A DNA stretch of 64,000 bases from a virus, in the IMG/VR virus record IMGVR_UViG_3300046665_000193, positions 14,981-78,980 of that record; one strand, written 5' to 3'. The translations under genes and the position numbers were made by a program. Shown one piece after another: positions 575 through 63,628 of this stretch. The stretch's first letter is position 1. Every line of letters starts with the position of its first letter. Below the pieces are notes generated by a model that saw only the letters and a list, made by a program, of their open reading frames with translations, searched no databases and was not told the origin of the DNA.

Positions 575-659
575 GCGGGCGTGGTGGAATTGGTAGACAC
601 AGCGGCTTTAGGTGCCGCCGCCGAAGGGTTTAGGGGTTCGAGTCCCTTCGCCCGCACCA
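575..659 (+). tRNA. tRNA-Leu(TAG), phage-borne, encoded CCA
   Basis: Acceptor GCGGGCG/CGCCCGC, anticodon arm GCGGC-TTTAGGT-GCCGC, long variable arm, GGTTCGAGTCC T-arm, ACCA end. Confidence 0.96.
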
Positions 660-670
660 TCGTGAGAAGT

Positions 671-685
671 GGATTTAGGTTCCCG
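671..685 (+). other. att junction A/B (core TTTAGGT 674-680)
   Basis: GGA-TTTAGGT-TCCCG; the same core recurs at 43549 and 44834 exactly where homology between elements switches. Confidence 0.85.
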
Positions 686-717
686 AGAGACTTACTCTAC
701 GATAGGCAACCTTCTAC

Positions 718-730
718 TAACATATTGATA
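718..730. promoter_or_regulatory. IHF consensus site in P' arm
   Basis: TAACATATTGATA matches YAANNNNTTGATW; lies between core and arm repeats. Confidence 0.6.
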
Positions 731-760
731 GCAGTCCAGAAATGGGCTGCTTTTTCTTTT
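731..760 (+). terminator. Rho-independent terminator inside the att P' arm
   Basis: GCAGTCCA-GAAA-TGGGCTGC + T-tract; the copy at 44889 has compensatory stem changes. Confidence 0.8.
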
Positions 761-793
761 GCCCAGTCATACTACGATATGAAGGTGGATATG

Positions 794-838
794 GGTGACA
801 CCCGCTTTGGTGACAGTGGAGCGGTGACAAAGTGACAA
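794..838 (+). repeat. Arm-type direct repeats GGTGACA(A), P' arm of element B
   Basis: Copies at 794, 809, 823, 831; identical block at 44954-44998. Confidence 0.8.
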
Positions 839-1257
839 ACGAGGAGAACAGACTGGAAACGAATGAAATCTGGGACTGGCAGTGCCGAATGCACCTCTGG
901 TCCTGCTGGCTCTACGAGATCGACGCCAAGCCCGCCCTCGACGACAGCGGCTACGACTGGCTCTGCAGGTTGCTCTCCAGCAACTACGGCAAGCTGCCCG
1001 ACTGGTTCACCCAGCGCGTCACCATGAGTGACCTCACCACCGGCACCGGCAGTGCCATCGCCAAGACCCTCACACCCGAAGAGATCGCAGCCGCCCGCTG
1101 GTGGCGCGACGAACACATACCAGCCATGCAAAAGGAAGCTGATGAACGCCGCATTGAAATTGAGAGAAGAGCATCTGGAACAGCAGGCCCAGCACAAGGG
1201 CGCAAAGCGGGTAAGGGATCAGGTCGCAAAGGCAAAGGAACGCGGGCTCGGGGCTGA
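832..1257 (+). CDS. Stand-alone protein resembling domain Ia (NAD-binding) of NAD-dependent DNA ligase
   Basis: WLYEIDAKPALDDSGYDWLCRLL resembles the LigA Ia YY..d.P.isDaeYD.L pattern; occupies the ligase slot. Confidence 0.55.
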   Translation: MTNEENRLETNEIWDWQCRMHLWSCWLYEIDAKPALDDSGYDWLCRLLSSNYGKLPDWFTQRVTMSDLTTGTGSAIAKTLTPEEIAAARWWRDEHIPAMQKEADERRIEIERRASGTAGPAQGRKAGKGSGRKGKGTRARG

Positions 1258-4038: not shown

Positions 4039-4144
4039 CCGAGTTCATCTCGTTTCTCGCAGGCTTCGGGCTGGGGATCGGCGCGACCTCAGCCTTCGTC
4101 ATCCGCGCAGCACTCAAGGACATCAAGGAACTGTCTCAGCTCAC

Positions 4145-4408
4145 ATGATCAACCGTGACCAGATGACTAACGCCGACGCTCAGCTCGTTGCTGACGCTGG
4201 CATCGCCATCCTCGACCGGATGCAGAACTACAAGCCGCACATCCAGCCACTGGCACTGTGCGCCGCGTTCCTCACTCTCGCCGCTCACATCCGCGTCCCT
4301 GCTCAGGACCTCTTCACGCTCACGACCAACATGCTGTCGGAGGAAGAGAACATCGCGGAGTTCAAGGCGCTGCGTGACTACGTCAAGTACGAGATCAAGC
4401 GTGCTTAG
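4145..4408 (+). CDS. Conserved phage hypothetical protein (87 aa)
   Basis: Identical protein at 48870..49133. Confidence 0.8.
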   Translation: MINRDQMTNADAQLVADAGIAILDRMQNYKPHIQPLALCAAFLTLAAHIRVPAQDLFTLTTNMLSEEENIAEFKALRDYVKYEIKRA

Positions 4409-4606
4409 GCTCTGGCCGGTCTGGCTGATCCTCGCCGCTGTCGTCATCGGGGCGCTGCCTCGCTGATGTCCCGCAACCTCTCACTCGCAATCCATATGTG
4501 GCGGCAGGGCTATCCAATCCCTGTTGATCTCCACACCGCACTCACCAACGAGGGGCTCAACGTGGCCCGCCTCGAACAGCGCTATCGCGCGTAAGGAATA
4601 CACTGA

Positions 4607-5368
4607 ATGGCAAATGCAAAGCGTCCGCAGGCTCCCAAGGGCACGACCTTCAAGGGCATCTTCAAGTGGCCGAAGCTGACCGAACCTGACTACGGTTCGA
4701 AGGAGTTCCCCAAGCCCAACGGCGAGTTCAGCACCAAGCTGGTCGGTCGCATGGATGATCCAGACGTGCAGGCGTTCATCGCCAAGTGGCAGCCGCTGCA
4801 CGACGAAGCCATCGAGCGGGCCAAGGAAGAGTTCAAGGCCCTCAAGGTCGATGTCCGCAAGAAGCTCAAGGAAGTCACCGTCAACCCGCTCTACACTGAG
4901 CTGTACGACGAAGAGACCGAAGAGCCGACCGGCGAAGTCGAGTTCAAGTTCACGATGCAGTACAGCGGCGAATACAAGTCTGGTCCGAAGCAGGGCAAGA
5001 AGTGGTACCGCCGTCCCGGCATCTTCGACGCCAAGGGCAACGAGATGAAGCCGACACCGTCCATCTGGGGCGGCACCAAGGGCCGCGTCGCGTTCGAGGT
5101 TGGCCTGAACAAAGAGAACATGCCCGGCTACTTCATCCCCGGCACCGGCGCTGCGGGCCTGACCCTGCGTCTGCAGGCAGCTCGCATCCTCGAACTGGTC
5201 AGCGAAGGCCAGCGTGACGCCAACAGCTACGGCTTCGGCGAAGAGGAAGAGGGTTACGAATACGACCCGTCCTCGGTCGCATCGAACGACGACGCTGGCA
5301 CCACCGATCAGACGGATGGTGAAGCGGGTGGCGAAGGCAACGACGCTGGCTCGAACCCCGACTTCTAA
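4607..5368 (+). CDS. ssDNA-binding protein (gp2.5-like)
   Basis: PD...GEF, IWGG, acidic tail ending in DF; T7 gene position. Confidence 0.9.
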   Translation: MANAKRPQAPKGTTFKGIFKWPKLTEPDYGSKEFPKPNGEFSTKLVGRMDDPDVQAFIAKWQPLHDEAIERAKEEFKALKVDVRKKLKEVTVNPLYTELYDEETEEPTGEVEFKFTMQYSGEYKSGPKQGKKWYRRPGIFDAKGNEMKPTPSIWGGTKGRVAFEVGLNKENMPGYFIPGTGAAGLTLRLQAARILELVSEGQRDANSYGFGEEEEGYEYDPSSVASNDDAGTTDQTDGEAGGEGNDAGSNPDF

Positions 5369-36629: not shown

Positions 36630-37497
36630 CCGAGACCCGCCCCATAGCCTCGCTGACGCTCGGCTCCAGGGCGGAAGTAGGGCAAGGCTCTCTAGGAGGC
36701 CCGTACAGTGCCCTTTCACCGGCACCCTCACTGACCCTGCTGTGCACCTCAAAGAGCGCACCCTGAGCCACGCCTGCTGACCGTAGAGTGTCTCCGAAGT
36801 GCATGTGAGGTGGGTTGCGGATAGTTGGTGAAAATCTCTGAAGTGGGGGCTCGAACCCTAAGGTGGCGCGTTTCCCCCGTGGCCCCTCGCGATCCACACG
36901 CATTGCAGGGCGATTGGCACCGCACCTTGTCACCGCACCATGCTAAGCCATTGATATGACTCAGGTCGCACGGGATGATGCATCCACATTGCCCATGAAA
37001 TGCAGGGGCGGGGCGCTATCGGGGCAGTGCAAGGCGTTGCGGTTCGTCCGCCTTCATCTTCATATCAGTGTATTTGCGATTGCAGCCCGCACCTTCAATG
37101 CACCTCAACAGCACGTCAGAGGCACGTTAGCGCCACGCCAGCGCAACGGCAGTGCCACCATGGGCCGCGTCTATAGTGCACGTCAGGTGCGCATGAGGTG
37201 ACAGGGGCAGGGCGCTTGCATTGTCACCACACGCCGCACCCACGTTGTCACCTCAGTGCACCTCAGATGCACGGGCAGGGCGCTATCGTGTGCCGTATGG
37301 CTTCCATTGTCCTGCAGCGTCATAGCGCCCGCCGTCACTGCGCACCTTGCCGTCATTCCACGTTAGCAGGGCCATTACAGCCACTGCGATTGCACCCAAG
37401 ATAACGATTTGCTTGGCCTTCATAACTACACTTCGACTCCGAAAGCGGTGACAAAACAGTGGATTATAAAATTGTTCTGTCTACCTGCATTTTATTG
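36630..37497. other. Non-coding region, probable virion genome-end / terminal repeat junction
   Basis: Lies between late (terminase) and early genes as in a circularised T7-like genome; rich in GCACC and TGTCACC repeats. Confidence 0.6.
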
Positions 37498-43396: not shown

Positions 43397-43448
43397 GGTG
43401 ACAATGCGGGTGACAAAGGGGTGCGAAATGGCACCTCTTTGGTGACAA
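43397..43448 (+). repeat. Arm-type repeats GGTGACAA, P arm of element B
   Basis: Copies at 43397, 43409, 43441. Confidence 0.8.
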
Positions 43449-43449
43449 T

Positions 43450-43534
43450 GCGGGCGTGGCGGAATTGGTAGACGCAGCGGCTTTAGGTGCCGCCGCCGTA
43501 AGGTTTAGGGGTTCGAGTCCCTTCGCCCGCACCA
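43450..43534 (+). tRNA. tRNA-Leu(TAG), phage-borne, encoded CCA
   Basis: Full cloverleaf; differs from 575-659 by a compensatory D-stem pair and variable-loop changes. Confidence 0.96.
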
Positions 43535-43707
43535 TCGAAGCCACGGGATTTAGGTGTTGGTGCCAAATCCTCTAGCTTTCGCAGGTGATACGCCCCGTTT
43601 CGCCGACTTCCCAAGTTGCTTCAATCACATCAGTAGATCAGTAATCTACTGCGCTTGGCAGGTTATTTTCCTGACAGGTCAAAAGGTGACAATAAGAGGT
43701 GACAAAT

Positions 43708-44534
43708 TCACCTATCGACGAGCGCTTCTGGCTGATTTGTGGATTTGGCCAGTCGCTTCAACTCATTGATCGTTTCGATTACTCGATCCATCGGCTCGAC
43801 GACTGTGTATCCTGAGTTGTGTCGTCGTTGACTTACCTCTTGACGATCAACTGAGCTATACAGCTTCTCGACAAATCCGATATTTCTGATTGCGACTCCG
43901 ACGGAGTGTCGATCCTCGGCCCTCAGCACCAAGCCACCACTGTTACCGGGATAGGTTGGACAATCGATGATGATCTTGTTGCTCGGCGGCTTGCCAGCTA
44001 CGATACCCGAGCGCAGCAGCGGGTATCCTCGGTCAAGCGCATCTTCCTTTTCAGCGAGTGAGGTTGGGTAGCCCATCATGAAGATCGGCTCCCCCGGTAT
44101 CACCGACGCATACAAGGCGGTCATGCTAAGAGGCGTACCTTGCAGGTATGTCGCCGGGTCGTAACCAATTTGAGTGACGCCTTCGACGAGGTCCATTCGA
44201 TACCGATTAACCCCCGCATCAGGCTGAGGTCTCATCGTTCCAATTCGACAGACGGCCACATCGGTGAGACCATCGGGATGCCTGCAAAAATTACCGTCTG
44301 CAAAAAGCCTCGGACTGTCGAGCGAATGCTTGACTGTCTTAGTGAGCGTTACACTATCGAGTGCGGTGATTATCACCGGATCAGTGAAGAGTTCTAATTT
44401 GTTTTTTAACAGAACATGCGCTGCCGAAACGAGATAGACGTTCTCGTTGTCGTAGAGATGGACCCGCTTCCTGTTGTGCCTTTTATCTCGATGAGGGCTG
44501 GGTAAGATAAGTAGTTGAGGTCCCTATTCGGCAC
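43708..44534 (-). pseudogene. Trypsin-like serine protease with a 1-nt frameshift near 44462
   Basis: GTG 44534 gives MPNRDLNYLSYPALIEIKGTTGSG; the other frame continues HLYDNENVYLVSAAHVL...DVAV...GNSGG; one added base restores GSGF and a 275-aa ORF. Confidence 0.8.
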
Positions 44535-44550
44535 GAGTACGCCCCCAAAA

Positions 44551-44635
44551 TGGTGCCCGGCGAGGGACTCGAACCCCCACACCTTTCAGCGACGGTACCT
44601 AAAACCGTTGCGTCTACCAATTCCGCCAGCCGGGC
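44551..44635 (-). tRNA. tRNA-Leu(TAG), divergent, cassette-borne
   Basis: GCCCGGC/GCCGGGC acceptor, ACGGT-TTTAGGT-ACCGT anticodon arm, GGTTCGAGTCC, ACCA. Confidence 0.95.
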
Positions 44636-44888
44636 ACGGGGCATTCCGATACACAATTGAGCGGTGGATGTCTCGACATAATCCACTGTTCGTCGTATTG
44701 GCGTCACCGGGTGACAAATCAGGTGTGAAATGGGTGACATTTTGCACCTGATGATGACAGTGCAGGTATCGCCGATCTAAATAAGCTCAGCGATTACGGG
44801 AGCTTAGGCGTCTCACGGTTTTGCGCCACGAGATTTAGGTTCCCGCGTCACTTATACTACGATTAGCAACTACATACTAACATATTGA

Positions 44889-44920
44889 GGGCAGTGCAGA
44901 AATGCGCTGCCTTTTCTTTT
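44889..44920 (+). terminator. Rho-independent terminator in P' arm of D
   Basis: GGCAGTGCA-GAAA-TGCGCTGCC + T-tract. Confidence 0.8.
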
Positions 44921-45010
44921 GCGTGCTCATACTACGATAAGAAGGTGGATATGGGTGACACCCGCTTTGGTGACAGTGGAGCGGTGACAAAGTGACAATC
45001 AGGAGAACAC

Positions 45011-63541: not shown

Positions 63542-63628
63542 CCCGGCCTAGCTTAATTGGCGAAAGCGTGCCCCCTCGACAGGATATGTAGTGGGGAGAT
63601 CGAGGTTCAAATCCTCGGGCGGGGATCA
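63542..63628 (+). ncRNA. tRNA-like RNA with elongated, non-canonical anticodon arm
   Basis: Acceptor CCCGGCC/GGCGGGG, D-arm GCTT-AATTGGCGA-AAGC, T-arm CGAGG-TTCAAAT-CCTCG, 28-nt middle arm, ends ATCA. Confidence 0.7.

Follow-up and report, generated by a model that had tools for sequence, protein, structure and literature searches.

The element junctions in this DNA are very probably attP-type sites at which a host tRNA-Leu(UAG) gene is split and not rebuilt, its function being complemented by a tRNA that the element carries (tRNA-dependent lysogeny). The mechanism is already known and these phages are further examples of it; what is added here is a tRNA embedded in attP, two layouts of the site, a switch between TAG and TAA, and an integrase-less cassette with a tRNA of its own.

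Layout of the window, its attachment sites and tRNA genes

The window, the whole 64 kb stretch that was analysed, comprises bases 14981-78980 of a 78,980 bp virus record, and the record is the whole assembly. It is purely viral, without host DNA, and its ends fall inside genes of phages A and C. Self-comparison and direct reading show four parts: up to 683 the window holds the right end of phage A, 684-43555 are phage B in full, 43556-44831 an integrase-less cassette of 1.3 kb, and from ~44841 to where the contig stops lies the left part of phage C. In the self-comparison most aligned blocks of A with B and of B with C are 80-92% identical, and a single short terminal block reaches 96%. The tyrosine integrase of phage B (42248-43363, + strand; 371 aa) matches Pfam PF00589 with 48.8 bits; the window opens inside the integrase gene of phage A, whose C-terminal part (1-487, + strand) aligns with that of phage B. 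Other phage B products have PHROG matches to RNA polymerase (873.9 bits), primase/helicase, DNA polymerase, head-tail adaptor (connector), tail protein, TerL and a gp0.7-like kinase. Judged by gene content phage B is T7-like (Autographiviridae with an integrase; the RNA polymerase is single-subunit), and it has the same order of int, attP and RNA polymerase gene as phages Pasto and Lo5R7ANS. Relative to phage B, phage C has an insertion of ~97 bp that forms a tRNA-like gene (63542-63625; Rfam tRNA, 35.9 bits), to which ARAGORN assigns an anticodon of four bases and an anticodon arm that is too long.

The sequence GATTTAGGT occurs exactly three times in the 64 kb (0.08 expected), at 672, 43547 and 44832; each copy marks one element junction. 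The A|B junction holds an attP-type core, GGATTTAGGTTCC (671-683), that mimics the host anticodon stem-loop. At the B|cassette junction the core is CGGGATTTAGGT (43544-43555), with the cassette flank from 43556, and at the cassette|C junction (44832-44845) GATTTAGGT is followed by TCCCG of phage C. The arm site GGTGACAA is eight-fold enriched in the window (16 copies against 1.85 expected), and 10 of the 16, every one on the + strand, are found beside the three junctions. The P-arm of the first junction (521-573, + strand) contains an inverted repeat and three GTGACAA-type sites, with GGTGACAA at 534 and 566, and ends 1 nt before the tRNA; the P-arm of phage B (43396-43448, + strand) has GGTGACAA at 43397, 43409 and 43441. 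Four GTGACA-type sites make up the P′ arm of phage B (793-838, + strand), and the P′ arm of phage C lies at 44953-44998 (+ strand). An intrinsic terminator in the P′ arm (730-761, + strand) has a matching terminator in the phage C P′ arm (~44890-44921), and is kept at the same place in the related contigs L021, L023 and L025, in Lo5R7ANS and at the attL of the Rhodopseudomonas prophage described below. Every P′ arm examined, including L014 (that same attL) and L011 (~5150-5185), has a terminator ~50-70 bp right of the core. Read from left to right, A and B have int, the P-arm sites, the tRNA, a gap of 11-12 nt, the core, the terminator and the P′ arm sites. A second cluster of GGTGACAA (36927-37454; three copies on the - strand and one on the +) lies between TerL and the early genes, far from the att sites; these copies may be extra arm-type sites for the integrase or the sites of a regulator.

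Phages A and B each carry a complete tRNA-Leu(TAG) on the + strand (575-659 and 43450-43534) with the anticodon stem GCGGC/GCCGC, and the cassette carries a complete, inverted one (44551-44635, - strand) with the stem ACGGT/ACCGT. All three were found by ARAGORN and by Rfam RF00005 (53.0, 53.8 and 51.4 bits respectively; cutoff 29) and are cloverleaf-competent. The preliminary description had claimed one complete gene per element, these same stems and a compensatory difference between A and B, and each point agrees with the new analysis; the compensatory change is at the 11:24 pair, U-A versus C-G. Across nine related tRNAs 180 of 180 pairs in the four stems are standard, and 11 of 20 pairs have changed on both sides. 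Because of this pairing and these double-sided changes we read the element tRNAs as structurally conserved genes of the working type, not relics, and they look functional. A promoter scan found no sigma-70-like promoter upstream of the phage tRNA. The description had also placed the tRNA inside attP, upstream of the core and between it and the arm-type sites, and had seen in the core a tRNA-Leu anticodon stem-loop that no tRNA 3′ half follows. The positions of GGTGACAA in A and B confirm the placement, the reading of the core is supported, and ARAGORN and Rfam detect no 3′ half on the right-hand side of the three cores; the spacing alone has to be corrected, from ~14 to 11-12 nt after the CCA of the tRNA (core 671-683).

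Split host tRNA genes in relatives and the stem of the element copy

Overlap of attB with a host tRNA gene is seen in two relatives, L001 and the XCP prophage, the window record itself being without host DNA. L001 is a contig of a metagenome-assembled genome (MAG) whose element has an integrase 77% identical to that of the window. Its attR consists of an inverted, cassette-like tRNA-Leu(TAG), the P-arm, GATTTAGGT, and then TCCAG with the rest of the 3′ half of a host tRNA-Leu(TAG); the gene after this displaced half was read as trigger factor (tig). The intact tRNA-Leu(TAG) of Rhodopseudomonas palustris XCP has an identical 3′ half, and its arm is exactly the CTGGA-TTTAGGT-TCCAG that the preliminary description gives for the host gene in Rhizobiales. 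No other Leu(TAG) was found in the MAG that carries L001, which is incomplete.

In the second relative (L002), R. palustris XCP carries a prophage of ~42.3 kb that splits tRNA-Leu(TAA) at the loop and whose integrase shows 44% identity. At its attR, GTGACAA arms are followed by a full phage tRNA-Leu(TAA), 22 bp, and the host 3′ half starting from the loop CTTAAAA. At attL the host 5′ half, ending in AGGGA-CTTAAAA-TCC, runs directly into a P′ arm with homology to window 684-840, terminator and arm sites included, and neither ARAGORN nor a permissive Rfam search (E<=1) finds a tRNA there. In pattern scans of the XCP genome the only intact Leu(TAA) found is the prophage copy, the host gene being present as two halves; a third match to the TAA pattern was rejected as the antisense strand of the tRNA-Trp and tRNA-Asn of the prophage. 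These two genes, tRNA-Trp(CCA) and tRNA-Asn(GTT), are adjacent in the prophage interior (L048 209-360, equal to G001:C1:105008-105159) and unrelated to the integration site. For the window elements, joining a host 5′ half in silico to the left end of B, C or the cassette gave 0 tRNAs, and the right-end junctions gave the element's own tRNA only. The earlier claim of a host gene split at its loop without being rebuilt is thereby upheld by the relatives (L001 attR; XCP attL and attR) and by the in silico junctions of the window ends.

The same site is seen in free form. Five free-phage contigs (L021, L022, L023, L025 and L026) have a P-arm, tRNA-Leu(TAG), 8-12 bp, [G/A]GATTTAGGTTC[C/T], a terminator and a P′ arm. 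L021 and L022 possess the full 17 bp palindromic arm CGGGA-TTTAGGT-TCCCG, which is the host stem type in some Hyphomicrobiales, and L023 has AGA...TCTGG, which fits the commonest host type CCAGA. The Bradyrhizobium phage Pasto has the cassette-type layout, with an inverted tRNA-Leu(TAA), different arm repeats and the core CTTAAAAT. In every case the anticodon of the tRNA matches the core loop: TAG with TTTAGGT in the window, L001, L021-L026 and Lo5R7ANS, and TAA with CTTAAAA in XCP and Pasto, so that the pairing holds over two anticodons and two layouts. The flanks confine the exchange region to GATTTAGGT in the TAG group and to CTTAAAATCC(C) in XCP, with a shared core of 9-17 bp. As the intersection of these regions, and if the family shares one cleavage geometry, the overlap is most likely the 7 nt anticodon loop TTTAGGT.

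Searches further afield yielded little. An integrase search of 401 Hyphomicrobiales genomes returned XCP only; an integrase-alignment scan of metagenomes gave three partial loci, none with a tRNA, and a second scan, of viral sequences, gave the same loci. Phages TRX32-1 and RHEph01 have a tRNA-Leu(TAG) directly upstream of int, but the core was not found in the stretch examined, and Roseobacter phage CRP-113 has no annotated tRNA between int and the RNA polymerase gene.

The Leu(TAG) pattern matches 177 of 201 Hyphomicrobiales genomes, and the gene is effectively single-copy. Apparent second copies were discarded (the match in G181 is not a tRNA, and that in G184 is a 501 bp duplicate contig). 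The base 5′ of the loop (position 31) was counted by hand in 150 listed host genes of this order: it is A in 122 (81% of the sample), always preceded by G, and G in 17, T in 10 and C in one. No TAG-type element tRNA has A at this position; it is C in A, B, L021 and L022, T in the cassette, and G in L001, L023, L025, L026, Lo5R7ANS and TRX32-1. It is conceivable, if somewhat unlikely, that the element tRNA is an integration-proof copy, its stem being kept unlike the core flanks so that Int ignores its TTTAGGT loop as a pseudo-core. All six TAG-type element lineages, with C, G or T against the prevailing A31 of the hosts, are consistent with such recoding, as are their stem types (GCGGC, TCAGG, ACGGT and GCAGG, with CTTGG in Lo5R7ANS and TRX32-1). 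The tRNAs of the cassette and L001 are identical except in the anticodon stem and variable arm, and the tRNAs of phage B and the XCP host differ mainly in the same two parts. The lineages are only partly independent, however, and both TAA-type phage tRNAs (XCP prophage and Pasto) retain host-like GGA...TCC flanks, sharing more identity with attB than their own attP cores do. Host anticodon stems are also naturally diverse (at least 12 types), G31 or T31 occurs in 18% of hosts so that phage tRNAs may come from such hosts, and selection would remove deletions made by recombination without any proofing. The preliminary idea of a recoded stem accordingly keeps its footing among the TAG-type elements, where A31 is missing, loses it among the TAA-type tRNAs, where GGA/TCC is kept, and is at most suggestive.

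The cassette and the nature of the junctions

The cassette contains left arm sites (43685-43705), an ORF (43708-44376, - strand), its tRNA (44551-44635, - strand) and a P-arm (44709-44760). The inverted tRNA is found just inside the P-arm, and ~70 bp of unrelated DNA separate the P-arm from the core. The right part of the cassette is 84% identical to L001 7351-7554. The ORF at 43708-44376, the only sizeable one in the cassette, encodes 222 aa with a GNSGG motif, and its match to Trypsin_2 is sub-threshold (26.3 bits against a cutoff of 27.6). A sequence that by eye is similar to this ORF lies just after int in L027 (~4100-4934, - strand), a provirus with an integrase 45% identical, and the ORF may be a recurrent cargo gene at this end of the phages.

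L021 (IMGVR_UViG_3300046691_000054; 43.7 kb), from another sample, has a junction at 4100-4480 with an uninterrupted 17 bp core. There a B-type right end (98.2% identical; Int 100%) is joined directly to a C-type left end (99.6%), without a cassette. Because the B-type and C-type ends are contiguous in L021, the window cassette is, on sequence comparison, a clean insertion within GATTTAGGT and a true product of site-specific recombination. An interpretation of L021 as a B/C hybrid was dropped; the right end of phage C is not on the contig, so L021 may be a free C-like phage.

A different origin of the first junction is unlikely, though it deserves weighing: the A|B junction at 575-685 could be the intact attP of free phages joined head-to-tail, by chimeric assembly or as a hetero-multimer, there being then no array that ends in a host tRNA. 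The purely viral record with both ends inside phage genes would fit this, as would the existence of free-form contigs of ~44 kb with the same attP, and an assembler could go wrong at the exact att-region repeats of ~50 bp. Eight public sequencing runs share words with the stretch, and the contigs of four of them, from rhizosphere and soil metagenomes, were compared with it. They include relatives that bridge attP, together with host tRNAs that pile up on 575-659, and no recognisable attL or attR was seen among them, which is again what free phages would give. Against this, A, B and C differ by 12-18% and so are not a concatemer of one genome, and the cassette sits precisely within GATTTAGGT between B-type and C-type ends that are contiguous in L021. 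The identity of the core and of the tRNA is unaffected by whichever origin applies.

Many phages carry tRNAs for codon supply or anti-defence. That the phage tRNA here serves mainly lytic codon supply or protection against tRNA-cleaving defences, its core-side position being incidental and lysogeny independent of it, would fit the tRNA-Trp and tRNA-Asn elsewhere in the XCP prophage and the anti-defence role raised as a possible co-benefit of a phage tRNA (PMC10865867), but is very improbable given that the anticodon always fits the core loop over the TAG and TAA switches, that the host gene is single-copy and demonstrably not rebuilt in XCP, and that even the 1.3 kb integrase-less cassette has its own tRNA.

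Proposed mechanism, known systems and significance

In tRNA-dependent lysogeny as we propose it for these phages, the lambda-like tyrosine integrase of a temperate T7-like phage would bind GTGACAA arm sites on both sides of the core, and strand exchange would take place in the short core, a copy of the host tRNA-Leu(UAG) anticodon stem-loop. After integration, the host 5′ half would run into the P′ arm and terminator at attL, the 3′ half of the host gene would lie displaced beyond attR, and neither junction would give a tRNA. The element's own complete tRNA-Leu(UAG) would then decode CUA for the lysogen. The terminator at attL would halt transcripts from the host tRNA promoter ahead of the phage RNA polymerase gene. 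The preliminary description further supposed that the right end of the element would be hard to lose; precise excision would restore the host gene. From the relatives we infer that the window phages use the same site; the phage tRNA would be expressed and required in the lysogen, and the host gene is presumably essential, making the lysogen dependent on the phage copy. A more far-reaching proposal is doubtful: that a complete tRNA-Leu is an obligatory attachment-site module across a broad clade of temperate T7-like phages of Alphaproteobacteria, that every element of the hotspot, even the 1.3 kb cassette, brings its own copy, that the loop-proximal stem pair is held unlike the core so that Int ignores it, and that these features in combination allow stable polylysogens in head-to-tail arrays, and parasitic mini-elements with them, at a single essential tRNA gene.

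Full complementation of a split tRNA gene, which the preliminary description had cited as known from other phages, is indeed published, and for the same tRNA and phage group as well (PMC10865867; PMC11476347). tRNA-dependent lysogeny was shown experimentally for the actinobacteriophages Fionnbharth (K4), LeBron (L1) and Gaia (X) (Guerrero-Bustamante and Hatfull, mBio 2024, PMC10865867); in that work the plasmids pCG38 and pCG44 show that an int-attP plasmid integrates efficiently only with the tRNA on it. As in those phages, a tyrosine integrase with arm-type sites is found here, attB lies, in the relatives, inside a host tRNA gene, and the common core is short (8-17 bp), so that no tRNA is rebuilt; Gaia too targets a tRNA-Leu gene. 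A phage tRNA of the same anticodon complements the loss there, and here we infer complementation, and with it the tRNA requirement that was established by experiment in the actinobacteriophages. Unlike in that study, T7-like podophages of Alphaproteobacteria are concerned here. The tRNA of type I elements is, moreover, part of attP, with the P-arm on one side of it and the core on the other; that of Fionnbharth overlaps gene 37, apart from attP.

Closer still are two Lo5R7ANS-like prophages, of Sinorhizobium meliloti AK21 and RU11/001, in which tRNA-Leu(UAG) is inactivated centrally and a replacement is carried (PMC11476347). They share with the window phages their membership of the Autographiviridae with an integrase, the tRNA-Leu(UAG) target and the remedy. 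The attP of Mesorhizobium phage vB_MloP_Lo5R7ANS has the same order, with GTGACAA arms, tRNA-Leu(TAG), 17 bp, AGATTTAGGTTCC, a terminator and GTGACAA arms; its integrase is only ~29% identical to the window integrase, and its int is separated from the tRNA by restriction-modification genes. The S. meliloti report (PMC11476347) does not deal with integrase-less cassettes, a change between TAG and TAA, the architecture of the att site or crossover at the loop, and no account of the Lo5R7ANS att site was found in the literature searched. Classical elements of the Islander type and the HP1 family likewise combine a tyrosine integrase with crossover in a tRNA-Leu anticodon stem-loop, and the window integrase is ~26% similar to those of HP1, HP2 and F108, a distant relationship. 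As described in PMC4383910, classical elements carry the 3′ part of the tRNA in attP and regenerate the gene; here, in contrast, no 3′ part follows the core and the target gene is not regenerated (XCP attL gives no tRNA).

The authors of PMC10865867 asked how common tRNA-dependent lysogeny is beyond the actinobacteriophages. The present sites indicate that it very probably extends to soil and rhizosphere T7-like phages of Alphaproteobacteria, with an att layout common to phages from Lo5R7ANS through to the Rhodopseudomonas prophage. Anticodon and core switch together between TAG and TAA, and the integrase-less cassette follows the same rule. In some lysogens, R. palustris XCP for one, a leucine codon appears to be decoded solely via the prophage tRNA, which bears on the curing of prophages, on tRNA annotation and on the design of integrating vectors for rhizobia.
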